Positions 5,477-64,000 are shown, numbered from the stretch's first letter. The stretch: DNA of 64,000 bases from Takakia lepidozioides (GCA_030704615.1 CM060733.1:69998001-70062000), one strand, 5' to 3'. A program made the numbers and translations. Notes: a model not told the origin generated them from the letters alone.

Positions 5477-8095
5477 CTACCCAACACTTCCTTCAAGCTT
5501 CAGGCTCATCAGCTGGTTGACCTCAGCTGCAAACTCAAGGGGAAGCTCCTTGAACACCTCCCGGCAGAACCCACCAATGATTGCTGCCACTGCCTTCTCT
5601 GCATCAATGCCCCTTTGCTGAAAATAGAAGAGCTGATCTTCACCTATCTTAGATGTGCTGGCTTCATGCTCAACCCTGGCTGTCGGGTCCTTAACCTGTT
5701 ATACAGAGACCTGATTAGAAATATTTGGTAGGTCCTGACAATGCAAGCCAAATTCCTGCTTTCTGGCAGGAGACACCAGCAGTTGAACCAACATGAGTAT
5801 AATCATCTATGGAGGAAATGACCGCCAATGAAAACAGGGATCCAGAGGCACCCCTGGTTGTATGTATCCACCAAAAACTCAAACTCTACTTAGTACGTTA
5901 CGCCCCACTCGTGAGCTCGCGGATCAGAAATCCACCCTGTCACTACAATAAAAAGAACAGATGATGGAGAAAGCTAAGGAAACAAATAGGTCCACGAAAA
6001 GAAGAACAAAGGGCTGGAGGAAGGGAGGGAGGCAGGCTCATCATCAACTACATGCACCATTCCCCAAATGTAGATCATATTGAACACTTGATGAGCACCA
6101 ATTAAGATGTCATAGGCACCCGAGGTACATAGGCAGATTTCCTGTAAGTAAATTGAAATAGGGAGCCCCGCCAGAATTTGGCAAACAGCAAACCTATGGA
6201 TGAAGATGTCAATGAAGAGAGGCACAGATGCATTTTGAAGGGAGATAATAGCAGGCTTACCTGGATGTAAGGGTAAGTGTTGGCACCCGCTTCATCTCCA
6301 ATGAGCATAGAGTCGCACTGTGAGAAGTTCCTTGCATTATGTGCCGATGGTTGCACCTGCAGGACCAATTGATGTTTCAGAATGCATTTATAGCAAAAAC
6401 CATTTGTCCAATAACACTAAACACAGTCTCCCTCTTACATTGAGGTACCCTGGGAAAAGACCCAATGATACCATTCCAACCACACAAATCCATTTAGTTC
6501 CCATTGGAAAGAGATGATAGGAAGCAAGACCTTCAATGCATCCTATTTCTGGTACTGAGCCAGATTCAGAAATTCGTCTTCACAGAAAATTTCTTGAAAC
6601 CCTAATCCATTAGGTTTAACCCATATTCACCAGCCATGCCTTCATACTCATTCCCATATCCAATCCTGTCATTCAGAATGTGGGGAACAGAGAGACCAAC
6701 CTGTACAAGTCCCCTGTAGCAGTTAACTGACTTCCCAGCCGAGATGCCCTTGGAGACAATCCTACTCCGAGAATTTTTGCCCACATGGATCATCTTGGTG
6801 CCTGTGTCTGCTTGCTGTTTGTTGTTGGTTAGAGCCACCGAATAGAATTCCCCCACAGAGTTATTCCCCTTTAACACCACACTTGGATACTTCCATGTGA
6901 TTGCCGACCCAGTCTCAACTTGAGTCCAGGAGATTTTGGAATTATCGCCATCACATAGACCCCTCTTTGTTACAAAGTTATATATGCCACCCTTTCCATC
7001 CTCGTCACCAGCATACCAATTTTGTACTGTTGAGTACTTAATCTCTGCCCCCTCTGCACAATAAAGCTCAACCACGGCAGCATGTAGCTGGTTCTTATCA
7101 TATGCTGGAGCCGTGCAGCCTTCCAAGTAGCTCACGAAACTCCTTTCGTCAGCCACAATGAGGGTGCGCTCAAACTGGCCTGTTTCCATAGCATTAATCC
7201 TAAAATACGTGGAAATTTCCATGGGGGACACTGTGTCCTTGGGAACATAACAAAAGGAGCCGTCACTAAATACTGCCGAGTTCAGCGCTGCATAGTAATT
7301 ATCCGCCACAGGCACCACTTTCCCCAGGTATTTTCTGACAAGCTCAGGACATTCCCGCACAGCTTCAGAAATCGAGCAGAAAATAACCCCTGCAGCCTGC
7401 AGCGTCTTCCTATGAGTGGTAGCAATGGAAACGCTATCGAAGACGGCATCCACTGCGACATTTGCAAGTCGCTTCTGTTCAGTGAGTGGGATTCCAAGCT
7501 TCTGGAAAGTCTCAAGAAGCTCTGGATCAACCTCATCCAGACTTTGTTTCTTCTCCTTCTGCTTTGGCTCAGTGTAGTAACACATGTCCTGAAAATCTAT
7601 AATCGGGTGGCGATTGTCTGACCATGTCGGCTCCTTCATTTTGAGCCATTGCCTGTACGCGTTTAGCCGAAACTGCAGCATCCACTCAGGCTCCTTCTTC
7701 TTTGCCGAGATCAAGCGCACAGTCTCCTCCGACAAACCCTTGGGAATAGACACTGATTCTATATCGCTCACGAATCCCCACTTATAATCCCTCTTTAGAA
7801 ACTGCTGAATTGTATCATCGCTCGAGCCTTTCGATGGCACCCTTTCCAGCACCGCCGACTCCCCCAACTCCACTGGCATAGCTTCGCATCGCACACTTGA
7901 TGTCTCTTTCCTGCAGAGCTTTTCCTGGAATCCATGACTGTGAACTTTTAGTCCCTTCAAACTGTAACGGTGAAACCCTAGCCTTGCACATTCTTCAAAT
8001 TGTCTAGTAACTTCTACTCTCCTACTCTTCGACTGCAACCCCAAGACCGTATGAGATCCCGCAGCAACTGACGCCGCCACTGTGCAAGCCTTCAT
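5477..8095 (-). CDS. SUFB: Plastid Fe-S cluster assembly protein SufB (ABCI8/NAP1-like), 3 exons: 8095-6701, 6356-6261, 5695-5477; about 569 aa with N-terminal transit peptide
   Basis: Hallmark SufB sequences: [72 protein letters not shown]. Canonical phase-0 GT-AG introns give an intact frame ending LEGSVG*. Confidence 0.95.
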
Positions 8096-9656
8096 ACCTT
8101 CAGATTCTTCTTATCGCCTGTAGATCAACTCGTGAGCTTCCAACAGCTTCAATATCAAGAGCAGAAAAGGAGCTCAAACAGATTCTGCCAGCACATACAG
8201 CAAACAGATCAGCTTCTTTTGCAGATATTACAAACCAAACCTCCTTCCTAATCTTCGTATCAACAATTCTGAAACGATTGAAATCCTCGAGGGACCGACA
8301 TAAGGAAGCGTGGCATGACAAGATTCTTGTGAGCATACGTCAAAGCACCTGACGTACAGATGGATGAATACGCTGCCCGCTAGATGGATGTAAAGTTGAC
8401 TGTCGAGTCATCCATCGATCATCCTTCTCGGATGAAAGTAGCTAGTAAAGAGGAATGATGGATGGACAGACCTAAACCGCAAACCCTGAAGACAGGATGC
8501 CCCTCATTATTGGCCCAAATAATACCTCGGCGACCGGTTCTGCCCGTCTCCAGAGCAAAAAGTATTGACCGGCATCGTACAGAAGGATGCATAGGATCGT
8601 AATCTGACCGGTTATAACCGGTCCACGTTGGAATGCCAAAGACAGATTGCGAGAGAGGAGGAGGGGGATAGTGTTGTGAGACCAAGGAGCTCCGATATGG
8701 CGGCGCCACCTTAGTGATGAAGGTGTGAGAAGCATGCACGGTGCACCGGGGTGCGAAACAGCAAGGTGAGAAAGAAATGAGTTGAGTGCATTCCCCGGTA
8801 GCCAGCTTCGCAATCAATGTTGAGTAGTATCTGAAAGTAGGGAAATGGAAGGCATGTAAAGTGGCGCTGAGAGAGGGACAGAAATAAGAGAGAAAGAGAG
8901 AGAGAGGTGAGACTGTTCGTCGAACAGCCACAATGTGTGGGGCCTGGGGTAGGTAACAACTAGACAGATTCATTGGGCCGAAAATTCAACGCTCTCTTTG
9001 GTGTTTGGGATGAGGGGTGAGAGATAGAAAATTGCGGATATGATCCAACAGAGCAGGAGGTTCCGTGAAGGAAAGTTTTCGCTAGATAGTATCTGTATCC
9101 TTTTTGCTTGTTCTCGTGAGATCAAAAAATTTCTTAGTCTCATGTCTTCATGTTGGCTGTGATCTAGCCGGAAAAAAAGAAAGCAGGAAATCGTTTGCAA
9201 GTAACGTGAGGCCACCAAGCAGGCCTTCATGTCTCTCCATAGCTTTTTTGGCTGGTAAAATAGGTGGTTACAATCAGGGTTACTCTGGTTGGGCAGATTT
9301 TTCCTGGATCTTGACGCATAGCTTTCACCAGCGTTAGTGCAGCATGGAACTGCCATTGGTTCTGAAATGCGGCCAGCTGCTGCTTTGTTCATTATTCTGT
9401 GGCCGGCATCCTGTCAACATGAACAAAGGAGCAAATGTGGAATCCAGTTGTGGCTTTAATACAAACTATGTTACCTTAGATAACGATACTACCCTAACTG
9501 TCAGAGTTATGCAGTGGAACATGCGAGGTGAGAGGGTAGCCATGGGTGGCGTTCTCTTTCATGACAGAAACACAGTTCTCTGTTACAATTGCGCAAAGGA
9601 TCTCATTTGACAATTGAAATGGTTTACCTCTACAGATTCATACTACAGCAACAGGG

Positions 9657-19751: not shown

Positions 19752-22700
19752 TATTCTTACGCACTCCTACTAGGGAGGCCATGGTTGGTCCAGTCCCGAG
19801 CTTGAACGGACTGGGAGGCAGGTACCATCACTTATGGGATAAAACCTTACACGACTACAGTCGCTTTTCTTTCGGGAGCACCTCACCACGAAACAGATGA
19901 GGATGAGCTCAACATGATTGGTTCTGAAGAGGAATCTGCAGACTTGAGTGAGGAGGACTGGTGGACAGATGAAGAGATCCATCCAACGTCACATGCCCAC
20001 CGAGTATTAGCAACCAGCACCGCGCCTCGCAGGGAGGTTACGCGAAGGAAGGTAGGACTAGAGGATGTCGTCAAGTCCCTAGGTCCGGGTTTATATGAAT
20101 GCAAGTCTGATGCAGACTGCATCGCCTGGTTGTTTGGAGAAAACCAAGGCAAGGAGGTGATGGTACACTCGGTATCAACCGAGGCACTTCCAGAGTTCGA
20201 ATCACTAACCGAGCTCTTCTCGATATCCGCCAAACAGGTTGGTCTGCATGAACCGGAGATTCCTCAGGAGGAGAACGGCGAGATCATTGACATGCGAATT
20301 GTAGAGGAGCCCGACCTAGAAAGGGTTGTGATGAAACATAGTGCCCCCTACATTCCATATTTATAACAAGGGTCAAACGGATCAAGGTTTGAACCAAGAT
20401 CAACCTTCACAGCCGAGCCAACAACGCAATTGGTCGATATGGCGGTGGGAGGAGAATCATCCAAGATGGTGAAGGTTGGATCCCATTTGACAGTAGAACA
20501 GACGGCAGAGTACCAGGCTTTGTTCAAAGAATTTAGAGACATCTTCGCGTGGTCCTACACCGAGTTGAAGGGGGTGCCTTCTTATGTGGCCATGCACTCT
20601 ATTCCCCTAATTCCGGGAGCTACACCATGATGGCAGCGAGAAAGAAGGGTGATTCCCAATCTGGCCCTTCTCATCAAAGCAGAAATAAAAAAACTGCTAG
20701 CCTCTGAGTTTATCTTTCCAATGGAGACATCAGCATGGGTGTCCCCCATGGTGATCGTTCGGAAAAAGAACGGAGGATTAAGGGTATGTGTGGACTTCCG
20801 CCCTCTTAACAAGGTAACGCACAAAGATCATTTTCCCTTACCGTTTATAGACACATTAGTGGAAGAAATAGCATGGAAGGAACTCTACTCTCTCATGGAT
20901 GGATTCTCGGGCTACAATCAAGTGTTGATCGACCCGAAAGATGTGTTGAAGACCACATTCACCTCACCCTGGGGAACATTTGCCTACACAAGGATGCCCT
21001 TTGGCTTGTGCAACGCACCCCTGACATTTCAGAGGGTCATGACGTATGCTTTCTCGGACATTGTGAGAAAGAATTTAGTCATTTTCTTAGATGACTTTTG
21101 TTGCAACGGGGATGCGAAGGATCACCTTGTGGCACTACAAGAATGCTTCACCCTGTGCAGAGAAAATGGGATATCTCTCAATCCAATGAAGTGTGTATTC
21201 GCAGTCACACATGGACTGCTACTGGGACACATAGTGTCCAGAGACAGTGTGGCGACAGACCCAGCAAAAGTAAGCGCCATCATCAAACTTCCCGCACCAG
21301 AGACGTCGTCCAAAGTGAAGGGGAATCCTTGGCCACACAGGGTGGTATAGGAAATTTATGGACAAGTATGCAGCAGAGGCATTACCTCTGACTCGACTAT
21401 TGAAAAAGAACCAGGTATTCTCCTGGGATGTAGGGTGTCAGGAGTCTTTTGAAATGCTCAAGGAACGATTGGTGTCTGCACCAGTCTTGGTAGCTCCGGA
21501 TTGGAACACGCTTTTCATGTTTCTGTTGATGCTTCAGCGGTGGCAGTAGGATGTGCCCTTTGCCAACCAGACGCTGAGGACCATGATCATCCAATATCTT
21601 TCGCCAGTCGACAGCTGACATTCGCTGAGACTAGGTATAGCACCACGGAGCGAGAGGCTCTGGGAATGATTTTTGCCGTACAGAAGTATCGGCATTATTT
21701 ATTGGAGACCCCATTTACATTTTTTGTTGATCACATGGCATTGCAATACTTGATTAACAAACCTGACCTGACAGGGAGAATAGCAAGATGGGTCATTTTA
21801 CTTCAGGAATTCGACTACAAGGTAGTCTACAAACCGGGAAGGCTGAACACCCAGGCTGACCACCATCTCTCGCGGTTGTCAGAGAAGATAGGGGACGAGC
21901 CTATTGACGATGACTTTCCGGATGCCTTCTTATTCTCGATTGAGACGGTTCCTCCTTGGTACGAGCACATTGCTCAGTATCTTAGCACCCTGGAATTTCC
22001 ACCATGAATGGATCGACACGCACGAAGACAACTTCGATTGCGCAGTATGAAGTTTGCCCTTGTGGGAGGGCAACTTTATAGGAGGGGATTGGATGGACTC
22101 TTGAGGTGATGCGTCACTCCAGAGGAGATTCCCCAGATTTTAGAGTCAGCTCATGACAGCATGTGCGGAGGACACTTTGCAGGGCGACTCACGGTCCAAA
22201 AGGCTTTGAGGGCAAGATATTACTAGCCCTCCATGTTCAAAGATGCACATATACATGTGCGAAAATGCGACTCTTGCCAGAAAATACGCTAAAAGGGATA
22301 ACAGGCTTGGGATGTTGTTAGTTCCCACTCTCCCCCTTGCTCCGTTTGAGAAGTGGGGAATCGACTATGTAGGGGAAGTGCACCCTGCTTCAAGTCGACA
22401 AAATCGCTCCATCATCGTAGCCACCCAGTATCTGACCAAGTGGGTAGAGGCCAAGGCGGTCAAGAGGGCCAACGCCCAGGTAACCGCCTCTTTCATTTAT
22501 GAAAATATTATTTCCCGATTCGGATGCCCCAAGGAGATAGTGAGTGACAGGGGCTCTCACTTTATTAACGACATCATCAAGGAAATGATGGCAGTATTCT
22601 CCATCAAGCATCGCAAGGCTACCCCCTATCACCCTCAGACAAGTGGTCAAGTAGAGTGCGCCAATCAAACCTTGTGCAACATCCTCTCCAAAACAATTAG

Positions 22701-23205
22701 GGAGCACAAGCGGGACTGGGACACCAAGTTGATCTCAGCTTTGTGGGCGTTTCGCACTACACATAAGGTAACCACTCAACACACCCCCTTTTCATTGGTT
22801 TACGGGGTGGAGTCCATTATGCCCATCGAAACAAAGATTCCCTCATTGCGACTGGCCATCACCGAGAGATTGGCAACATCCGAGTCCCTGAAAGAACGAC
22901 TCGAGATGCTGGAGGGGTTAGACGAGCTTCGGCAGGCAGCAGCTCAAAACATTGAGGCCGTCCAGCGAAGGAGAAAGGCTCGGTTTGACCTGAAGCGCAA
23001 AAAGAGGATTTTTGATCCAGGAGATCTGGTATTATTGTTCGATAGCCGGAATGAGGAATTCAAGGCCAAGTTCGACTCATACTAGATGGGGCCCTATCTT
23101 GTCAAGACAGTCTTTGATAACGGCTCATTACAATTGGAGACACTGAGGGGAGTGGAGTTCCCCAATCTGGTGAACGGTGTCCGGTGCAAGCACTACTACA
23201 TGTGA
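19752..23205 (+). pseudogene. pol: pol of element 1 (protease C-terminal half, RT, RNase H, integrase) with stops and frameshifts
   Basis: YALLLGRPWL; LRVCVDFRPLN, MDGFSGYNQ, MPFGLCNAP, FLDDF; VDASAVAVG, YSTTEREALG; WGIDYVG, IVSDRGSHF, YHPQTSGQVE; ends GPY..KHYYM*. Confidence 0.92.
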
Positions 23206-40831: not shown

Positions 40832-43800
40832 TCACTGGTCCCCTGGATCCATATTCAGAAGAGTGTGAACCTCCTGGGGGCTCAACCCTGGTGCATATAT
40901 GAAGTGATGAGTTGTGGAATTACAACGGAGTCTCTTTAGGTACACGTAGTACAAATGCTTGCAAGGGCAGTATGATGCCCCCTTGTTCGCCATGATCTGG
41001 AAGTCGGTGCAATTGCAGGTGGGTAATTCTGAAATGATGATGGTGTACACCTCATTGCGAACAGCTGAGCCTGCCGTGGCCATCTGATACACACGCCCGA
41101 ATCCGGGTGGGGGCACTTCAGTCGAGCTCTGGATTGTACAGTTCATCCGAAGTGCATTCCACATCCTTGTCTCGTTCACTTTTGAGGGAGGTCGCCGCCT
41201 CTTCGGTTTCCCCCAACGGTGTGTAGGATGCTTAGAGCTGTCGTGTCCCATTGTTCTTGCTCTCACAGGGGTCGGTGGTGGAGGCTGTGGAAGCGGAAAT
41301 GGTTGTCTGGGGACGTCAGTGCGCTGCACCATCCAAAATCCTGCGGCGGTAAGGGCGTCGGCCTCAACCTGACTCAGATCGCAGCCTGGTTCCACCGGCC
41401 ACACCGGGGGAGCCTCTGGCATTGTTTGTATGCCGTACTTGGGCTTTCCATACACGCAAGTCATAATGTCGTGCCTGCAGAACCAGAACTGGGTGGTTGT
41501 CGCCTCCGCAAACTTTGCATGGACAAATCTTCCTGTAAAAGTAGGAGCAGGGACAGCCCCATCTGGATTCCTCCTTATCATCTCTAAACAACGTTGCCGT
41601 GTATCCACACGAATTGCGGAACACCTTCCTCGAAACGACGGCTTTGTGCGAGCAATTCTCCACTGTGATGCAGACACAGTCGTCTCCACAATGGCTTGGC
41701 CATACTGCATAACAGCGGGCGGAATCTGGGGCAAGGGAGCGGTGGGAATTTCTCGCACGAAATCCCCGGTTGAAGACGACGGCGATCTGGAATTTCTTGG
41801 GCTTCCACTGCTGGAAGACACATTGTGCGGCAACATGACGGGACCTCGAGGTGCTGTCCGAATGTTCCTGTCGGATCTCCAGGAATCCTCTTCGCACCCG
41901 GGTTCCTCTTCAATCCTCCGCCTGACAGGGCAAGTCCGGACGTCCCCTCTAGGTGTTCACCTCTGCGGTGCAGAGGCGTCCCTTTGATCTTCTCTTGCAA
42001 TGCTGTCGCCCATTTCACTGGATTCTTGGACCTCGAAGCTGTTCGTACCAACAATTCCTCCCTGTCCGGCCCAAAGCCCCATTGTTTGCCACTCAGGAAC
42101 TTGTAGTACGTGGCTTGCTGCATGATTGCTCTGTCGATGTCCTCCGTTGTGGCCGTCACTACGTCCACCAGATGTGCGGTAGAAGACGCTCGCCAGGAGG
42201 AGTGGACCGATTCTGCCATATTCGTGTTCGGCATGTCCGTGTCGGAATCCAAGCACCGCTCCTAGAAGGACACAAACAATGGTGAGGGACCAATCGAAAT
42301 GTCCGTAACAGAAAGACAAATGAACGAAAATGACAGCAGCCTACCTCCCGCATGTACTGTCCGAACTGTCGATACCGAAAATGCCACCACCCCAACCAGC
42401 TGTGCAATGCTCCCAGATTGGTTGTCTCCACTGCACCTGACGTGTTCCACCAAGCCTCGATGATAGCAAACTTAACCTCCGCGTCATCAAATGTGGGTGC
42501 ATCCTTCCACGCCGTACAAATGACACGATGTTCAGCCTGGAATGAGCTAGCAACAAATTTGGTAGTGTAGTGGGATAGACTCTGCATCCAATGGAATCCA
42601 CAGGATCTCTCTTTCCCCTCCATTGGAACATTGGGGTCCTCACCGTACACACGCCGCACCGCTGCCCAGTTGGCCTGAGCGTTGTCTGCCATGAATCCCC
42701 TGAAATTGGGCTCTGGCAATCCCGCCCTTGCCATCTGCTCGTTTATGCCCTCCCACAGATGCATCTCGGACTGTGTGTCCTCCCCTTTCATCTCACAGAT
42801 TGCAATCGTCATGAGCCTCTTGGAGTGATAGTCATAAACATGCGCACCCATAGTCATCCACTGATGGTTTGTAATTCGCTTGATGTGATCAAACATCACC
42901 CAAGCATTCGACAAGTTTCCAGTTGTCATGCGAGTGACCAAGTCGACTCCACTCCCAGGCCCACACGTCGACATTTTGAAAATGTAACAACGATCGGATT
43001 CGCTGCCTTGCCTTGGAAACCTGCTACCTTGGATGTAGTCATATCCAGTCATTCGTTTCACCTCCAGGATTGAGTACATGTCCGACCCCCTGCCGAACTC
43101 CTGCTTGCAAGATACGATGTGATTCCGCACATTCGGACTACAAACGTGCGAGACGGACTCCAAGAGGTCACGCATCTCGTCTTCGGTCAAGGGCTCTCGG
43201 TCGGAACCATCTTCAGACATGATTTTGCCAAGAGCAATCTTGTGGGCTGCCTTCAGCTGAATCTGCTTTGGTCTGGCTCCGGGGCTCAATTTCACCTCCT
43301 CTTTTATGATGTCGTGTGCTTCCTGCACAGCCTCACGCATGTTGCCTCTCGCCAAGGGGTGGCAGTGGACCCCAACGTGTATGCAAGCTCAAGTCAAGTC
43401 CGGGAGCAAATGGATTACGTAATATTGCTTGGCTCTGCACATGGACATGCACATCGGTGGTTCTTTGCAATGTGCACACTTGAAAGAACCCGCAGGAGCT
43501 TGGCTGGAGACAATGAATGGATGATGCGTTGTGCCAGTCCAATCCGTCTCGTTTCTCCGCCCTCCTTTGGAGAGAAAGTGGAAGCAGGTGGGATTGAGGC
43601 ACCTCAGCTTCCCCGCACAGAGGACATATCGTACACGAACACCATCAGCAATTTTCGTGCTACTGGTCTTCGTCACACACCAGGGGTGTCCGTCATGCTT
43701 TCGATCCATGTCTGTTAACATCCCGGAGGCTTTGTTTGACGAAGAAACAGGTGGAAACTCGAAGATGACATTGCCATCGACTTTGGGAGGCAGAAACGTT

Positions 43801-44361
43801 ACCTTTCTGACTGGGAATTTGGCATAGTCGAGAGCAGCCAGCTCGGAGCGAGAACCATCGAGGTGATGTTGTCGTAGGAGCTGCACAATGGACCGGGTTG
43901 GAGTTATCAATGCAATCATCTTCCTCGTCGGAAATGTCAAATACGTCCACACGAGAAGCTATGGAGGGTCTTGACGGTCCAGGTCGGGAATGATTATCGT
44001 TGCATACCTCTCTGTTGGCAGTGGCCGCCTGTCGGTTTCCGGACTCCTTTGTGGATGGTGTGGGCAGCGACTGATTCGGAAAGGGAATGGGCATTCCCAC
44101 AGCTTGGTACAGGATGGTGTCTGATGGGGGTACGTGCCATTCGATTCCGCAACCTCCGTCGTTACCTAGCACGACAATGGTCTCGTCAACCTGTCCAGGA
44201 ACATCCTTCCTTTCTTCTTCCAAATAAACTGTGCCCGGTTTGAGCTTGAATTTGGAACAAAGGTAAGTTTCAGTCACTCTGCAAAGTCCTCCCTCGTTTG
44301 GGATCCAGGCTCTCCCAAGTTGCGGAGGACAGCAAACTATAGCGTAGGAATTCGGAGCCAT
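40832..44361 (-). pseudogene. Mutator-like transposase: WRKY/GCM1-like Zn domain, DDE core, SWIM finger
   Basis: CAGKLRCLNPTC..CAHC..HVGVHCHP; VMFDHIKR..FMADNAQAN..RSCGFHW (CxxH); an intron at 42344-42262, then TNMAESVHSSW (catalytic E); CNCTDF..CPCKH (SWIM). One in-frame stop at 43389 and several frameshifts. Confidence 0.8.
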
Positions 44362-54195: not shown

Positions 54196-57100
54196 TGTGG
54201 AAACATTGGTGGCTTTTGAGTATATCCTAGTGGTTTTTGCTTGAGAATGAGAGAAACCAAGTTGTTATGCAAGGAGCACCGTGGAGCTCTTGGTTGTTAG
54301 AAGCGGAGGCGATGTGGGTTACGAGGTGGTAGACCTTGGCATTCGATCTTCAGCTTCAGAGATGAAAGCACCATGCTGCAGGTAATTCCAGAGCACCTTG
54401 ATGGTTTCAGATTGTGTACATGCATGAGCAAGCACGATTGGGAAGAGGACCAGTCAAGAGCAGGTTATAGTGGCTTTGGTGGCAAAGCTGAGAACTGGAC
54501 TTGGGAATGCGAGCTTTCATTGTGTGAAGGATTGCAAGACCAAGCAAAAGGGCTGATTTGGCTTGGGGCAAATCAGTGCACTTTGTGGAGTATGGTGAGA
54601 TTGGGTTTCAATCTCGAGCTTCAACATTGAGAGGGCTCTTGTCATGGCAAGAGCAGGCTGGAACAGAAGCTAAGAGGTGTGGCAAGGCCATGGAATGTGC
54701 ACCTAGGGTTTCAGAGCTTGGAAGAAGAGCTCTCGCACCAACAAGAGAAGTGTCTTGTGGCTGGAAATGTAAGCCTTAGGGTTTCAGGAGCTTGGCAAAG
54801 GTTGTGGAGTGCTTAGTCTTGTCTTAGAGAGCATCAAGGAGCCAAGGAGCCAAGATAGGGGGCTGATATCTCTGTGTGTGAAGAGGTTGCATGTGTGGAG
54901 CATGTATTCAGCTCATTGAAGCTTCCATCTTAAGCTTGGAGGGCAAGCAAGGAAGAGGGAAGGGCTGACTTCCCTTATGTGAGGGCAATGCATGTGTAGA
55001 GCATGCTATCAGCCTGGTGAAGGCTTGCACTTTCAGGTGTGGGAGTGCAAGAAAGGAAGGAAGGGGCTGGTTTCCCTGTAGGGCATGTGGAGCATGCTTT
55101 CAGCCTGCTGAAGCTTGTATTTTCAGGTTTGTGGGTGCAAGAAATGAAGCAAAGGAGCTGATTCTCTTATGGTGAGAGTGGGGCATGTGTGGAGCATGCC
55201 TTCAGCCCATTGAGGCTCTTGTTTTTCAAGCTTTAGAGAGCTAGAACGGAAGGTCTAGGGCTGGTTTCCACTTGGAGTGAAAGAAAAGCACTTGTAGGGC
55301 CTATGTGAGTTGGGGTTCAACTTCAAGCTTGAAGGGAGCGCAACTCTTGAAGCAGCAGGTGTAGGGGGCTGGAATAGGCTCTAAGACAGATGTTATGGCC
55401 AAAGAGAGTGCTTGAATGAGTGCTCACAAGGGCTGGGAACCAGCAGGGCTTGGTTGTTTGCCATTGAGTTTAGTGGCGTGTTTGGGGAGGCTAAGTGAGA
55501 AAGAAGGCTTGGTTGTGGCAACCACCTCATGGCTTAGGGCTACTATGGTGGTGTGTGGGAGCCGAAAGAGCAAGAATACCTTGCTGATTTCCTCACAGCC
55601 ACCATAGCTCGGTGGAAAGAAGCCTAAAGTCCAAGAGACACAAACCCTAGCTTGGCGTGGCTAAACCCCTTGGAGAAATGGCTAAACTGCCAGAGCGGCC
55701 ATGGATGGGGCTGTGCCCGTGGCCTTTGGGGCCGTGATGGGCTGTGAGGGGCTGTGACAGGCCGTGCCTGAGGTCTTTGGGGCTGTGACGGGCTGTGAGG
55801 GGCTGTGACAGGCCGTGCCTGAGGCCTTTGGGGCTGTGACGGGCTGTGACGGGCTGTGTCAAGCCGTGCCTGAGGCCTTTGGGGCTGTGAGGGGCTGTGT
55901 CAAGCCGTGCCTGAGGCCTTTGGGGCTGTGAGGGGCTGTGCCGGGCTGCGCCGGTGGCCTTCAGGGCTGTGACGGGCTGTGGGGTGGCCTTCGGGCTGTG
56001 ACGGGCTGTGAGGGGCTGTCACGGGCTGCGCCGGTGGCCTTCGGGGCTGTGACGGGCTGTGAGGGCCTGTGAGGGCCTGTGCCGGTGGCCTCGAGGTTGT
56101 GACGGGCTGTGAGGGCCTGTGACGGGCTACGCCGGTGGCCTTGGGGGCTGTGATGGGCTGTGAGGGCTGTGCCCAGTGGCCTGTGGGGTTGTGACGGGCT
56201 CTAAAGGGCTGTGTCAGGCCGTGCCTGAGGCATTGGGGCTGTGAGGGGCTGTGACAGGCTGTGCCCAGTGGCCTGTGGGGCTGTGATGGGGCTGTGACAG
56301 GCTGTGCCCAGTGGCCTGTGGGGCTGTGACGGGCTGTGACAGGCTGTGCCCGTGGCCTTTGGGGCTGTGATGGGCTGTGACAGGCTGTGCCCAGTGGCTT
56401 GTGGGGCTGTGACGGGCTGTGCGGGGCTGTGACAGGCTGTGCCCAGTGGCCTGTGGGACTGTGACGGGCTGTGTGACAGGCTGTGGCGAGCTGTGACGGG
56501 CTGTGCGGGGCTGTAACGGGCTGTGACAGGCTGTGACGAGCTGTGACGGGCTATGAGGGGCTGTGACAGGCTGTGCCCAGTGGCCAGTGGGACTGTGACG
56601 GCTGTGACCAGTGAGCTGTGTGGGCCTGTGCTGGTCTGTGGTGGCCCGTGTTGACCTGTGGACGGCCTGTGCTGACTCGTGGAGGCACTGGTGGACTGCT
56701 AAGGACTGGCATGTGGTCTTGAAGGCCGAATTTTGAAGCTCGTGGAGGGCGGTTTGAGGAGTATCTTCATGATATTCCCATGGTCATGCAAGTGAGGGAA
56801 GAGAGGAAAGGAAGAGTGTTGGGATGAGGGCATGCTGGGGTTAGGCATTGCTTTAGCTTCTCTTCCTCGTCGTTTCCACCCTCTCATTAGGCCAAGACCT
56901 TTCCGTAGGTGGAGACAAGAGTCAGTCCGGGTTTGGGCTGGGGTGTCATTGCAGGAGCAACACCGTGGAGTTGTTTTTGGTGTGGGGGAGTTGTCGTTAT
57001 GATTTCTTGTGTTTGGATCCCCTCCATACCTGCATGCTTGACTGTGCGCCATGCTAGTTTTGTGTGGGCGCTTGTTTTTATAGGTGATTGGTCCGGATTT

Positions 57101-57289
57101 GATCACCGACCAGTCCTAGAGCATGCTGTCGATGGTGAGGCTGGGGTGATGACCAGCCAGACCATCATTGTTTCTCCTGTGGTGAGGTTGGAGGTGATGA
57201 CCAGCCAACCATAGGAGTGCTTGCGGTGGATGCAGGTACAGGTGTAGGCTATGTTAGGAACTTAGTATTCCAAACCATAAGCCGCAACA
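54196..57289 (+). repeat. Putative ~3.1-kb 5' LTR of the DNMT-gypsy element
   Basis: Abrupt compositional change at TGTGG (54196). Ends CCGCAACA just before gag. The second LTR is not in the window. Confidence 0.5.
55700..56660 (+). repeat. GGGCTGTGAC-type ~10-bp minisatellite inside the putative LTR
   Basis: Dozens of GGGCTGTGAC/GGGCTGTGAG/AGGCTGTGCC units with higher-order variants. Confidence 0.95.
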
Positions 57290-57305
57290 GGTTCTCTAAC
57301 CTCTT

Positions 57306-58858
57306 GTGTCTTCTACAGAAGGTTCTGATTCGGATTGTGAATCAGGAGGACTCATACCGGCGGTGCAAGTTGTTTCTTTGCCATTGTTGTGGGACACAAT
57401 GGAGGAGATGTATGGAGCTATCAAGGGGCCACGAAGGTACTCTAGGGCGGTGGGCACCATCGAGTTGGATGATTTTATCCAAGAGTTTGATAGTTGGTGT
57501 GATTTGCAGCAAATGCGCAATCCACAACTATTTACGCCTTTCATGGCATGGAAGGGGCTGTTTCAGCACCTTGAGGGGCCGCCTATGGATGATTACCATG
57601 AGTTCAGGCGGGGGCATGAGGTTGAGATCGAGGAGTGGAGGATGTACTGGTCACCCGACTATGTCTCCATCACTAGGGGCACTAGAGCCACGAGGGCAGT
57701 GGCTACACCTGCCGCTGCACCGGCAGCTTCAGCAAGTAGCAGTGGGACTAGTGGGACTGGTGGTACAGTAGCTACAACGTCCACCCAAGCCACTACCGCA
57801 CCAGCACTAGCACCCATGCCTGCCTTCAACCCTGTTGTGGAGTTCTTCGAAGAGTTGAGAGGGAACTACCAAGGGGTGAGGACAGAGAAGTTGCGAAGCT
57901 TGCAAGAGTTCCAACGGAAGCCGACCGAGAGCTTGAGGGAGGCTTTCACTCGCATGAGGCGCTTGATAAATGTAACCCAAGGGGTTACGGAAGCTCAGGC
58001 AGTCCAATTCTGGTATGGGATATTGGACTACGGGATGCAACTCTCCTACAAGCGGCCCAACCCACCTTAGCAAATGTGTTTTTGCTAGCAGAGCGGATAG
58101 AGCTCACCATGGTGGAGGAACGAATGGTCATGGTGGGATTTGCTAAGGAGACGCCATGGGGTAGTGATGCTCTTAGCCAACCACTACCTCAACGTGCTCA
58201 AGGCAACAAGGGGGCTCAGGTGAAGCTCAGGGAAGGGCAGAGAGGACCTCAGATGCAGGGGTCTCTCCCTTTATTTGCTGGCCAACAACGGGCGGATGTG
58301 GTGTGTTGGACATGTGGAGGACCCCATGTCAAGAAGGATTGCCCAGATGGAGGCAAAGGGTCGGCACATGCACAGCCTACACAGTTGTAGTGTGGGCATT
58401 GTGGCAAGTACGGGCATAGAGAGGCCCAGTGTTATGGTTTGCATCATGAGTTGCACCCAGGCCAGTTCCAAGGGAACAATGGTGGCTGGGGGCAAGGTGG
58501 AGCAGCCCAGAGAGGACGAGGTGGCCAGCCACGAGGTGCAGGCCAAGGGCAAGCTCAACGTGGCCAAGGACGCGGAGGTCAGGGTGTTGACCAAGGCATG
58601 GCCAACCGGCTTCAGCAGCTAGAGCATACGCTCGTTGCCATGGCTACAGCTCGGGTGGTACCGGCTCTAAGGCCGGATGGTCCACCTCCTGCTCCTGAGG
58701 GAGGAGATATGGGAGGCATGGGATTCAAGTGTGGAGCAGCACTACCACTAGTGCAGGTGGAGTCTGCTGCAGCCGTGACTCGAGGAGCAACACGAGTTCC
58801 TGAGCCACGAGGTGCAGAGGTGGAGTTGGATCCACAGCGTGGGGAGGCAAGCCGTTAG
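57306..58858 (+). pseudogene. gag: gag with two zinc knuckles
   Basis: LRSLQEFQRKPTESLREAFTRMRRL; CWTCGGPHVKKDC and CGHCGKYGHREAQC; Gly/Arg-rich tail. Frameshift near 58040 and TAG stops. Confidence 0.85.
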
Positions 58859-61800
58859 GCTAGGCTTCCTCAGTCATTTACATTGGCAGAGACAGTGTCG
58901 GCGCCATCCATGGCACCTAGTTCTCGCCCGACGGTTACCGAGGCGGAGGTTACAATGCCATTGGGGAGAGCTACACGGGTAGCACCACTACCTAGTGTTG
59001 CCAAGGCTACGGCAGCTAGTGTGCTGCTAGGAGCGGCCACATCTGTGTGCCAGGCTCCATTGTTCTCGGCTACCATGATTGCGACGCCAGGGGTAAAACC
59101 AGCTGAGGTGTTCAGGCTGGCAGCTACACTTTGTGAGAGTGGGGAGGTTACTTCATCTTCTGCGGAGATAGTGGGAGGTGTAGTGCCGGAGGGATCCTCG
59201 GATTTGAGGGTCAAGACTGCCACGGCGGCGCCATGGCAAGCTGCAGCTGCCAGGTTGATGGAGCTGCCAGCTAGGCCAGCCATTGAGCGCGCCATGGTGA
59301 CACCTGGAGTTGTCATATTAGACAACCAGGATGACATTTTCTGTTTGAGTGGACCGGCAGGCAAGAGGTACTGGCCACTGCGGGTCTTGTTGGACTCGGG
59401 AGCTCAGCCATTGATGCTGGGCAGAGCTGCTATTGCAGGCTTGGGCCTCACGGAGGCGGATATGGAGCATTGTCCTTTCCAGATACATACGTCTCTGGGA
59501 GGATCGGAGCAGGCTCGAGGCATGACACGACGTGAGTTGGCTATCAGACTACGGCCGGATCACCCTACAGATGGCTCAGTGATGCGAGCCAAGGCCATTG
59601 TGACAGACGCAGTCTCATACGATGTCATGGTTGGTGGGGCAGTGTTGTACCCTATGGGCTTCACCCTGGATTTTTGGGAGGAGTCAGCTTCCTATAGGCC
59701 TGCATGGCAATCAGGGAAGGGCCAACGTGTGCAGCTCCCTGTGACGTTCATAGGAGGAGTTGCGGTTGCCCAGCGAGGCAAGATGCCGACACTAGCAGCA
59801 TTCACAGCGGCAGTGAGTTGGCCTAAAGAGTTGCTTGAGGGCAACGCTCATTCAGAGGATGTGCCACCTCCGGGAGAGCAGGATGACATGTATGGTATGG
59901 CGGAGTTACCTACCATGGTTGCTCAGACTCCATTGTGGGGCACGAGCAAGGATTTGCAGCGGGATGCTGATCGACGGGTGCAACAAGCCTGGGTGGAGGC
60001 TTTTGTACCGTCAAGAGAGGAGGAGAGTGCGGGGATTGCACCAAGACCACCTCAGTTGTCTCCATTGGACACCACACCTATTGTGTGGCAGTATCCGGAT
60101 GAAGACATTTGTCTTCTGGACTTGTTTGGCGGGATCAGCACCGGATTGGCTTCTGTGTTACAGGCAGGTGTACGAGTTTTGCGTTACCTGTATGTGGAGA
60201 GGGATGAGACTGCACGACGCATTTCACTTCGTCATGTTGCTCAGTTGGTGCAGCGATACCCTGAGTTGTTGTCGGTGTCTGCAATTCGTGGATATCAGCA
60301 GGCCTTGCCAGCAGACATTTCGTTGCTGGGGGCGCAGGATTTGGAGCGGGTTGGCTCCATTGATCTGGTAATGGCAGGTTGGCCCTGCCAAGGGCATTCA
60401 TCAGCCGGGCATGGCAATGGATTGCGAGACTCAAGGTCGGGTCTGTTTTGGGAGATGGTGCGGGTTTTGCGCCACTTGCAGCTTCATCAAGCTGTATCTC
60501 TAGCATACATCTTGGAGAATGTGCCACTGATGGGTAATTCTCGGGCCAGGGTGATGGCCAGTGTGCATCAAGTCCGGTCGTGGCTTGGGTCAACAGTGTT
60601 GCTAGATGCAGCTACAGTAGGGTCACGGGCTCATCGACCACGGCTATGGTGGACTAACTTGATGCCACCCGCATTGCTCAAGCGTGCATTTGATGGGGTG
60701 CAGCGGCCAGCACATCTCACAGTGGATAGCATTCTGGACACAGGGAGGCAGTCTCAGCGTGTGAGACACGATGACCGTTCGCCCTTGGCAGTGGTCAACA
60801 AGGTGGGTCAACCACGAGCAGCATTACCTACACTGCTCAGCTTCCCAGGATCGCATGCTTTCCGGGATAGTGGACCTGGCCTCCTGTGGGATGCTTAGTT
60901 GCAGCAGTTAGTGGAGCCTAATGCTGATGAGCGTGAGCGGGCAATGGGTTTTACCACTGGTACCACGGCGGTGTCGTCTCTTTCTGAGGCATCACGTCGT
61001 CAAGTGTTGGGGCAAGCAATGGATCTCAATTGCTTGACCTGGATTATCAGCTTGGCTCTGGCTGAGCAACGCAGAGTGCGGAGTACACTTCCCTCGATGG
61101 TCTCTCTACCTACCGAGACGGTACAGGCAGTGAGTGGGGGCGAGCATGTGAGGACCACGGGGTGCATGCATCCATGGCACACGTGGGAGGTGCTCGAGGT
61201 TCAGATAGTTGGCAGCCAAGGCGGCTGTGATGGATGAGGTTGGGGATTCTTCTTGGGTTGAGGAGGTCCTCAAGGATGAGATGATGGGGCAGGATGAGGC
61301 CTTGTCATTGAGTGAGCAGGCAGGGAGTACTGCTCAACAGGTTGCAACATAGCAACCACTGGACGCGTCCTCTACCTCTAAGCCCACTGGACTTAAGGTT
61401 GCAGTTATGGAGAACAATTGGGAGCCTGACATTGGACCCATTGTCACCGGAGGAGAGAGACGGCATATACGGCGGTTCCTGAGGGCTTATAGGAATTGCT
61501 TTGCCTTCAGTTTGAAGGACTTGGGAGCACTGAAGGGTCAAGAGATCCGTATTGAGTTGGCCACTGACACGCCAATCTTTCGGAGACCCTATAGATACAG
61601 TGACATGGAGAGGTCTTTGATTCAGATGAGGACTCAAGATCTCTGGGAGGCAGGTTTGGTGGAGCTCTCTGGTGGAGAGTATGCTTCAGCCACAGTGATG
61701 CCAGCCAAGAAGGATGTCTATGGCAATTGGATGGAGAGACGTATGTGCGGTGATTACCGGCCTGTAAATCATCAGACCAAGTCCGATAAGTATGCCATGC

Positions 61801-64000
61801 CCACACCAGAGAAGATCTTTGATGCCATCGGGCATGCTAAGGTCTTTAGCACTTTGGATTTACGATCCGGATATCACCAGTTGCCAATCAAGGAGGCGGA
61901 CAAGCAGAAGACGGCATTCTGGGGGATCAATGAGCATGGCAAGGATTGCCTATATCAGTGGCGGTTCTTACCATTTGGGCTTAAGAATGCTCCTGCAGAG
62001 TTCAGAAAGTCATGGATAGAATTCTAGCAGGGGTGGACTTTGCTCGGTGCTACATAGATGACATCATCATCTTTAGTGTTACGATGGAGGAGCATGAGAG
62101 ACACCTTCAGGTGGTATTGGAGCGCTTGAGAGCGCACGAATTGAAGTTACATCCGGGGAAGTGCAAGTTTTTCCACAACCAGATTGAGTATCTGGGTCAC
62201 ATGATATATCCTGGAGGATTGGGGGTACAACAGACTAAGGTAGAGGCCATTGCACAAATTCCACGCCCCACGGATGTGAGCCGAGTTCGAGCTTTCATGG
62301 GGTTGGCAAACTATTATAGACGGTTTGTCAAGGGATTTAGTACCATTACAAAGGCTCTAACCAAGCTGACCAAGGTGGACCAGGAGTGGCAGTGGGAAGA
62401 TGAGCAGGAACGAGCTTTTCAAGAGCTCAAGGCGAGGTTGACCTCGGCGCCTATCCTGAGACGACCTATCAGGGGGCGTCCTTTTCAGCTGCATACGGAT
62501 TAGAGCATGCTGGGGCTTGGAGCGGTGCTCACACAGGTGGATGATGAGGGAAGAGAGTTCGTAGTGGCTTATGCTAGCCGCTCGAACAACGCTGCAGAGG
62601 CTAAGTACAGCTCATATGAGGGAGAGTGCTTAGCTGCAGTGTTGTGTGGCACACTTCAAGTGCTATCTATACGGCAATCTTTTCACCCTTGTCACGGATC
62701 ACCAGCCACTCAAGTGGTTGATGGAGTCAGACAAGCTTACGGGGAAGCTTTCACGGTGGGCACTCATACTCCAGGAGTATGACTTTCAGGTTGTGCATCG
62801 ACCGGGTTTGGTCAATCGGGATGCGGATGGATTGAGTCGCAATCCATGCATGAGCCAGCAGGATGACACTGGAGCTCGGTGGCATGGTGAGACGGACGAG
62901 GAGATGGTGCCGGGATGGCACGCATCTGCATTTTTGTGTATCTTGGCATCGGGAGGTCAGGTTGGACCTACAACAGGGATGACTGTAGACGGAGTGTCTG
63001 AGGACCCTGAGGCTAGTGATGAGCCAGGTGGTGCCAGAGATATACATGAGGATTCGGCTGTGTTGGACTACCTCCGCACTGGAGACACGGCAGCCACTGT
63101 GACTGCCAGGGAGAGGGATCGGATCCTGCAACGAGCCAAGAGGTTCAAGTGGGAGGGGATACACCTACTTCAAGTGTGGGAGGATGGTCGGGTGAGGATT
63201 GTGCCTCACCCCACAGAGCGTGCACGGTTGGTGCGGCATGCCCATGAGGAGTTGGGGCATTTTGGAGTGCGACGCACTCACAGTTTACTGCAAGGGCAAT
63301 ATTGGTGGCGTGGTATGCATACAGAGGTACAACAGTTCGTGGCTAGGTGCATGGTGTGTGACAGGGTGCATGCTTCATTCAACACCCCTACACCACAATT
63401 GCATCATTTACCAATCATGGGATTGGGCTACAGGTGGAGTCTTGACTTCGCAGGACCGTTGCCACTGACTATGCGCCACCACAGATATGTGTTGGTGATG
63501 GTAGAGCACTTCTCCAAGTGGATTGAGTTGGTTCCATTGCCTGACAAGGCTAGTGAGGGGGCTGCGTATGCATTCTTGGATCGTGTGCTTAGCCGATTTG
63601 ATGCTCCAGCTGAGGTACTCACGGACCAAGGGAGAGAGTTCTTGGGGGAGTTTCAGGCTTTGTGTGATAAAGCCTTGATAGACCACCACACCACTTCTCG
63701 GGATCATCCTGAGGCCGATGGCTTAGCAGAGAGAGTTGTTCAGACGGTGAAGAGGGGTTTGCGCAAGTATGGCTTGCATAAGGGACACCTAGGAGATTGG
63801 GATCTTCAGGTTCCTTGGTTAGCCATGGGCTACAGGTTCAGCAAACAAGCATCACTTGCCTCCTTCTCACCATATTTCCTTCTCTTTGGCCGAGAGCCGG
63901 ATTTGCCTGCAGCCATTCGTAGGGACATTGCTCAAGTCCTTAACCTTGACGATCCGGATGTGGGGGTACGTGCATGTGATCAGCGTGCAAAGTTGTTCAA
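58859..64000 (+). pseudogene. pol: pol: protease, DNMT, RT, RNase H, integrase (partial)
   Basis: LDSGA; RMCGDYRPVN, LDLRSGYHQ, LPFGLKNAP, YIDD; [15 protein letters not shown]; HEELGHFG..CMVC, SLDFAGP, VLTDQG, AERVVQ. Confidence 0.92.
60101..61060 (+). pseudogene. C5 DNA cytosine methyltransferase domain (DNMT3-like motifs) embedded in pol
   Basis: Motif I LLDLFGGISTG, II YVERD, IV IDLVMAGWPCQGHS, VI YILENV, VIII HRPRLWWTNL, IX ERERAMGF, X RRQVLGQAMD. Same frame as the protease (VLLDSGAQ). One TAG at 60896. Confidence 0.93.

Follow-up and report, generated by a model that had tools for sequence, protein, structure and literature searches.

The window, the whole 64,000-nucleotide stretch of DNA analyzed here, carries a Ty3/gypsy retrotransposon in which a C5 cytosine methyltransferase (DNMT) domain lies in frame with Gag and protease (PR). 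A conserved stop codon stands between this domain and the reverse transcriptase (RT), and the domain does not belong to an open pol frame. An earlier note on this DNA had placed the domain between PR and RT within pol. The position stands, but a TAG at 61350 intervenes before RT, which would put the enzyme at the Gag level and not at the pol level. What appears to be new here, as judged from sequence, is that the DNMT ends the Gag-protease frame, that the stop behind it is of the leaky TMV type, and that the integrase (IN) of relatives is tipped with a PHD finger.

The window element and its decay

The window element is a decayed member of a Ty3/gypsy family that is present in many copies in a non-seed land plant, and it is almost certainly a Gypsy-Dnmt3 copy. 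Assigned by Pfam frame by frame, its domains follow the gypsy order Gag-PR-RT-RH-IN (RH, RNase H), all on the plus strand. The gag region (57399..58855; Retrotrans_gag, E 5e-4), with two zinc knuckles at 58304 and 58391, is followed by an aspartic protease (59300..59761; a weak Asp_protease_2 match, E 0.078) with the motif LLDSGAQ at 59387-59407, by a DNMT3-like C5 cytosine methyltransferase (60080..61063) recognized from Pfam, from its unpermuted motifs I to X and from the fold of a relative, and by an unconserved linker of ~95 codons (61064..61349). Beyond the TAG and the CAACCA (CAR-YYA) next to it, a predicted read-through site between Gag-PR-DNMT and RT-RH-IN (61350..61358), come RT and connection (61353..62500; RVT_1 in two frames, YIDD at 62051), RNase H (62501..62850; RT_RNaseH/RT_RNaseH_2) and an integrase with zinc finger and core (63033..64000; Integrase_H2C2 and rve), which is cut by the window end. 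No chromodomain match was found in the distant intact relative L023 or in the closest relatives, which have a PHD finger instead. This C-terminal integrase PHD finger is present in L023, P0392, P0393, P0420 and P0441; its place in the window element is beyond the end of the window, which falls inside the integrase.

The 5′ noncoding part (LTR/leader, 54230..57398, plus strand), with its 5′ boundary unresolved, is covered by contigs of the same runs as the coding region. No LTR pair is visible in the window element because its 3′ end falls beyond the window. The 5′ region includes a G-rich tandem array (55709-56608) with units of ~10, 41-42 and 83-92 bases. In run X1, which is recorded as probably DNA, contigs join 56791 to 57236 or 57215 with GT..AG ends, and these junctions (56791-57236) possibly reflect a leader intron that may have been lost in some retro-copies. 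A hairpin in the leader (57086..57121, plus strand), whose loop contains a self-complementary hexamer, is the sole significant noncoding match between the window and L023 (L023 8497-8530; blastn E 1.7e-4). The two hairpins have an identical 9-base loop and different stems (z −0.73 in the window and −2.49 in L023), and the structure looks like a candidate dimerization or packaging signal.

The earlier note had drawn a pol with an in-frame DNMT at 58883..61237, which did not hold as stated for the present copy. The region 58859-61237 is a single reading frame with one internal stop, at 60896-60898, which cuts the DNMT ahead of motifs IX and X, and there is a frame break in the linker near 61205. 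Elsewhere, gag has a frame break near 58030 and stops at 58388 and 58856, RT a frame break near 62004, and RNase H a stop at 62501 and a frame break near 62640. With a stop inside the DNMT and several frame breaks, this copy is dead. The stop at 60896-60898 and the break near 61205 are each either confined to this copy or missing from relatives, and a linker indel that distinguishes other copies from the window sits at the 61205 position. The differences listed for run X1 comprise 107 A>G and 84 T>C, compared with 56 G>A and 43 C>T, an excess that fits decay of this copy by C-to-T changes.

Elsewhere in the window, a plastid-type SufB gene for Fe-S assembly (6605-8110, minus strand) is closest to Sphagnum proteins; a SufB tree puts it within the non-seed land plants, with Sphagnum as a weakly supported neighbor (83/55), and from this gene the host would be a non-seed plant, likely a moss. 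A second gypsy element (19806-23082, plus strand) is unrelated and decayed and has no DNMT match. Several long frames on the minus strand (40835-43958) have cysteine/histidine motifs that recall what we take to be a SWIM-finger, Mutator-like transposase.

The methyltransferase domain

The C5-methyltransferase motifs share one frame with the protease motif LLDSGAQ at 59387: motif I lies at 60113, motif II at 60191, motif IV (GWPCQ) at 60362-60391, motif VI (ENV) at 60509, motif VIII (HRPRLWWTN) at 60632, motif IX (ERERAMGF) at 60929 and motif X (RRQVLGQAMD) at 60995. This bears out the earlier observation that the motifs, including the catalytic PC and ENV, are in the protease frame, and the profile search proposed with it gave a Pfam DNA_methylase match to the window DNMT with an E value of 1.8e-12. 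The description of the domain as DNMT3-like was equally sound: human DNMT3A/3B are its best solved relatives by sequence, and for the natural relative P0085, which is 68% identical and has a predicted fold with a pLDDT of 84.5, all of the Foldseek matches listed are DNMT3A/B/C (best E 1.2e-18). The domain is closer to DNMT3 than to DRM, DNMT2 or bacterial enzymes, with family-profile scores of 62 bits for DNMT3A, 53 for DNMT3B, 25 for HhaI and 18 for DRM2. In the single-frame relatives P0081 and P0027, motif IV reads GWECQ and not GWPCQ, and the catalytic cysteine is kept.

Related elements in bryophytes

Gag-PR-DNMT proteins 57-73% identical to that of the window were found in Marchantia, Calypogeia and Sphagnum. 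When longer proteins were searched, 34 of 5201 candidates matched, and the 20 that have an organism name are from Marchantia (16), Calypogeia (2) and Sphagnum (2). Protein clusters contain several full-length Gag-PR-DNMT proteins of 1278-1332 residues, at least five of them in Marchantia; examples from Marchantia polymorpha are Mp_4g09160, Mp_5g06330, Mp_5g06860, Mp_Vg00370 and Mp_Vg00540. More distant protease-DNMT forms occur in Closterium, Mesostigma and Klebsormidium. Among the matches listed with an organism name there was no vascular plant, which is weak evidence given the limited candidate set. The earlier note was right about a charophyte precedent (KnitGypsy-Dnmt3), but it took the arrangement to be exceptional in land plants, and the matches indicate that the DNMT-bearing arrangement is widespread in bryophytes.

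In run X1, 121,780 contigs lie along the whole length of the element, and a 1.7-kb contig from a second organism spans 59362-61047, from the protease to the end of the DNMT; it shows 54 differences and is free of gaps. Summed contig depth, which represents coverage and not copy number, is even across DNMT and RT. Identity to full-length relatives is 67-75% in the DNMT, 54-65% in Gag and 52-58% in the protease, and the DNMT is thus better conserved at the protein level than Gag or protease. Among 30 full-domain relatives, hand-picked from the Gag-PR-DNMT group and including many near-copies, strict patterns detected motifs I, IV, VI and IX in all 30 and motifs VIII and X in 27. Loss of the domain from other family members, or its neutral evolution, had been named in the earlier note as the outcomes that would tell against it; we found the DNMT in other copies and species, and a protein identity above that of Gag and protease suggests that the domain is not neutral.

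These results bear on the possibility, which we regard as highly improbable, that the DNMT does nothing for the element, either as a passenger or as a single capture event in a copy now dead. A passenger would be in keeping with a dead copy that has a stop inside the DNMT, and no activity has been shown for any Gypsy-type DNMT; it sits poorly with a domain that recurs across copies and species, that is conserved above Gag and protease, and whose tree is largely congruent with that of RT (see below).

We found no footprint of self-methylation in the form of CG depletion, the observed/expected ratio being 0.51-0.52 in the element, 0.64 in the neighboring DNMT-less gypsy element, 0.58 in a host exon and 0.73-0.84 in L023, and CHG depletion was likewise without sign of self-methylation in the element. 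Among viral contigs, only distant phage-type methyltransferases were found. A metagenome scan returned three distant loci, of which two are decayed and the third has the RT-RH-DNMT-IN layout.

An intact distant relative

L023 is an intact plant-type retrotransposon on a 9.3-kb contig (1-9285) filed in an uncultured cyanobacterial genome bin, in which it is most likely a eukaryotic contaminant; the ends of the contig overlap, as in a collapsed repeat. It has an open Gag-PR-DNMT frame of 1162 codons, then TAG CAA TCA, then an open RT-RH-IN-PHD frame of 1047 codons. Identity between L023 and the window is 44% in the protease, 51% in the DNMT and 67% in RT, and the linker cannot be aligned. The second L023 frame has no Met before residue 117, and the conserved RT start is at residue 75.

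A conserved stop codon and a predicted read-through site

The RT frame of the window is closed by the TAG at 61350, ~95 codons beyond the DNMT, and the next six bases are CAACCA. We examined this junction in a variant table that is complete at an 8% threshold and covers 61250-61440 with 1447, 21, 29 and 2 contigs in four runs from four studies, run X1 possibly being the window's own source. In 4/4 runs none of the 16 variant places lies within 61350-61358; positions 61338, 61347 and 61360 vary in all four. The frame break near 61205 is common neither to most X1 contigs nor to X6, and there is no such row in X7. Since this break is not family-wide, the DNMT frame in the family reaches the TAG at 61350 and RT continues in phase.

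Of the 4992 stop triplets in the window, 10 are followed by CARYYA, as expected by chance; the element has a single case among 211 and L023 a single case among 299, and both are the junction. The family and L023 each have a UAG with CAR-YYA and an in-phase open downstream frame. For TMV, CAR YYA 3′ of the UAG is described as essential for read-through (PMC2754532), and CAR-YYA is reported to be sufficient, as the sole signal, for read-through of the UAG (PMC2194720). By analogy, RT-RH-IN is likely made by read-through of the conserved UAG-CARYYA. We propose no pseudoknot or stem 3′ of the stop, because no stable structure was found there in the window (z 0.47; L023 z −2.82).

Junction DNA is known only for the window family and L023, and for other relatives the stop is read from protein ends. 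Nearly all close relatives terminate soon after the DNMT domain: eight proteins from Marchantia do so 79 residues past it, those from Calypogeia 81 and the P0083 cluster 95. Measured from motif X, the proteins of relatives end after 42-196 residues, an interval in which a frameshift or a splice could sit.

An alternative is that the stop is a true end and that RT-RH-IN is produced from a spliced message or an internal promoter, in which case the DNMT would still be made at the Gag level. Gene models from Marchantia and Sphagnum (P0008, P0009, P0015 and P0031) do join DNMT to RT and skip the stop region, but these models are automatic, mutually different and located in decayed copies. Ogre elements have an intron between protease and RT. 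The transcriptome open reading frame P0392 starts 80 residues upstream of its RT match, and for Candida Tca2 a junction promoter has been proposed and the stop context is reported not to be read through in yeast (PMC2194720). Yet in each of the elements for which there is DNA, the window family and L023, the second frame is in phase with the first, the exact hexamer is retained where the rest of the linker is not, and there is no early Met in the second frame of L023; in the window RT frame, an early Met at residue 19 is not common to other copies. We therefore consider a true end quite unlikely.

Trees and layouts

The DNMT and RT trees come from quick searches in which no host DNMT3 sequences were included. 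Among the 150 best representatives from 4147 matches (E 0.001), 61 have the layout RT/RH-DNMT-IN, 16 have the DNMT after the protease or before RT, and 73 show a DNMT alone. Both trees split the two layouts and they are largely congruent; DNMT and RT appear largely to have descended together. All 13 relatives labeled as ending after the DNMT, a label that rests on protein ends in 11 of the 13 rows, form one clade in the DNMT tree (SH-aLRT 98). This stop-type clade takes in the Marchantia and Calypogeia rows, and all named land-plant members are there; Klebsormidium P0436 and the Closterium rows run on into RT. In P0400, the RT is nested among stop-type RTs, but the frame is open and the DNMT is of the other group, which shows that the stop does not strictly follow the RT lineage. 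The doubtful row P0099 falls outside the stop-type clade in another tree.

The second layout, RT-RNase H-DNMT-integrase-PHD in one frame, forms a clade of its own that includes L003 (2-4147), P0104, P0108 and others. Six of its members were looked up, and Scenedesmus is the only named one; we found no description of the RT-RNase H-DNMT-integrase layout in the accessible text of the literature on transposon DNMTs. P0491, a related gypsy polyprotein, is listed with PF05869, presumably a Dam-type adenine methylase, and a PHD finger.

A proposed mechanism

Retroelements require Gag in large excess over Pol, and the ratio is reported to be set by frameshifting, splicing or read-through (PMC2194720). 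If the stop is leaky, as we think, then a single transcript would carry both frames, as in established retroelement biology, with Gag, protease and DNMT made in every round of translation and RT-RH-IN made only on read-through, at a level that the same biology would place between a few and a few tens of percent. Because the switch sits after the DNMT, Gag-level output of the enzyme is predicted. The DNMT would be coassembled into the particle with Gag and freed there by the protease, and it would meet double-stranded cDNA in the particle and methylate the new copy, with a predicted specificity for CG and possibly CHH. The new copy might benefit by arriving premethylated and resembling resident heterochromatin, or alternatively through a quiet arrival or protection. 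The integrase PHD finger of relatives would read target chromatin, so that a methyl writer would be paired with a chromatin reader.

Alternatively, the DNMT might act outside the particle or by binding: it could methylate chromosomal copies or their flanks in trans, as a self-limiting device or to silence competitors, or it could tether the integration complex to CG DNA. Gag-level output would be far more enzyme than one cDNA requires, the element shows no extra CG loss, a PHD finger on the integrase of relatives fits action on chromatin, and the moss host enzyme DNMT3b is reported to carry out de novo CG and CHH methylation in heterochromatin (PMC6453930). We nevertheless judge such action unlikely, as a pure tether has no need of the catalytic motifs that are retained, fusion to Gag-protease puts the DNMT in the particle, and nothing here shows nuclear release.

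We thus favor methylation of the cDNA inside the particle, although we would put it only slightly above an even chance. The whole reading, in which Gag-PR-DNMT is made at the Gag level, a leaky UAG-CARYYA gives RT-RH-IN by read-through, and the packaged enzyme methylates cDNA, seems to us reasonably likely. Its broadest form is tentative and falls a little short of even: a bryophyte-wide gypsy clade would have shifted its recoding site to a position after a DNMT3 that it had captured, the DNMT would have become Gag-level particle cargo through TMV-type read-through, and every new copy would be methylated before integration.

Why retrotransposons carry an enzyme that silences them has been a question since 2018, and the known carriers have been algae without genetics. 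The lineage described here is present in Marchantia polymorpha, for which methylation mutants and reporters exist, and if the reading is true, the role of transposon DNMTs would be testable in a genetic model plant; several full-length Gag-PR-DNMT frames have gone unrecognized among Marchantia gene models. Conservation of the leaky stop suggests that the element is selected for far more DNMT than RT or integrase. Counts of DNA_methylase domains in bryophyte annotations include transposon proteins.

Comparison with known systems

Like the window element, KnitGypsy-Dnmt3 of Klebsormidium nitens belongs to Ty3/gypsy and has an unpermuted DNMT3-like domain in its coding region; a single ORF is described as holding this DNMT together with RT and RNase H, and the element is also described with a DIRS-like layout of split direct repeats (de Mendoza et al. 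2018, PMC5890265). In both the DNMT and RT trees with a chlorophyte-type root, a branch with a support of 99 places Klebsormidium P0436 (PR-DNMT-RT-RH-IN) and the window together on one side. Unlike KnitGypsy-Dnmt3, the window family has a UAG-CARYYA after the DNMT and a land-plant host, and because the TAG at 61350 is family-wide and is found in L023, we regard the family as a variant and not as KnitGypsy-Dnmt3 itself. The KnitGypsy-Dnmt3 kind is characterized by purifying selection on the DNMT, with a Ka/Ks of <0.2; in the window family the comparison is one of protein identity, which is higher in the DNMT than in Gag and protease. The Klebsormidium Gypsy DNMT, the one Gypsy-type enzyme that has been assayed in yeast, gave no methylation, a result reported as inconclusive by its authors (PMC5890265). 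The best precedent for activity is SymbioDIRS-Dnmt3 of Symbiodinium, which likewise has a DNMT3-like domain in a retrotransposon polyprotein and is reported to cause de novo CG methylation in yeast (PMC5890265); it differs in being a DIRS element with a tyrosine recombinase, an independent capture and a DNMT in the Pol frame.

EpiLTRs/DAM-LTRs resemble the window element in being LTR elements with DNA methyltransferases and a chromatin reader, but their DNMTs are described as sister to DNMT4 and accompanied by DAM and a chromodomain; in the accessible text of that preprint, "streptophytes (Gypsy-DNMT3)" is a separate acquisition, and Marchantia and bryophytes are unmentioned (bioRxiv 10.64898/2026.05.21.726589). 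The accessible text of PMC12344493 speaks of "streptophytes" and does not name bryophytes, and a 2019 opinion paper states that "land plants, such as tracheophytes" lack transposon methylases (PMC6338049). We found no account of a bryophyte DNMT-bearing gypsy element or of read-through in the accessible text of the literature, including PMC12344493, PMC11982613, PMC10508981, PMC9477723 and PMC7466625, although subscription papers, figures and supplements may hold one, and no mention of a PHD finger or read-through in Neumann 2019. The host plant DNMT3 proteins of non-seed plants (PpDNMT3a/b) share the DNMT3-type catalytic domain, but these are described as cellular genes with DUF3444 (PMC6453930), whereas the window DNMT is embedded in a Gag-protease frame.

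In its in-frame UAG, CAR-YYA and open downstream frame, the junction resembles the TMV type I read-through site. SIRE1, Tca2 and MuLV are reported as stop-separated retroelements (PMC2754532, PMC2194720); stops in retroelements usually split gag from pol or pol from env, whereas here the stop comes after the protease and a methyltransferase. Taken together, these comparisons identify a known kind of element, Gypsy-Dnmt3, that is extended here to land plants with a new layout.
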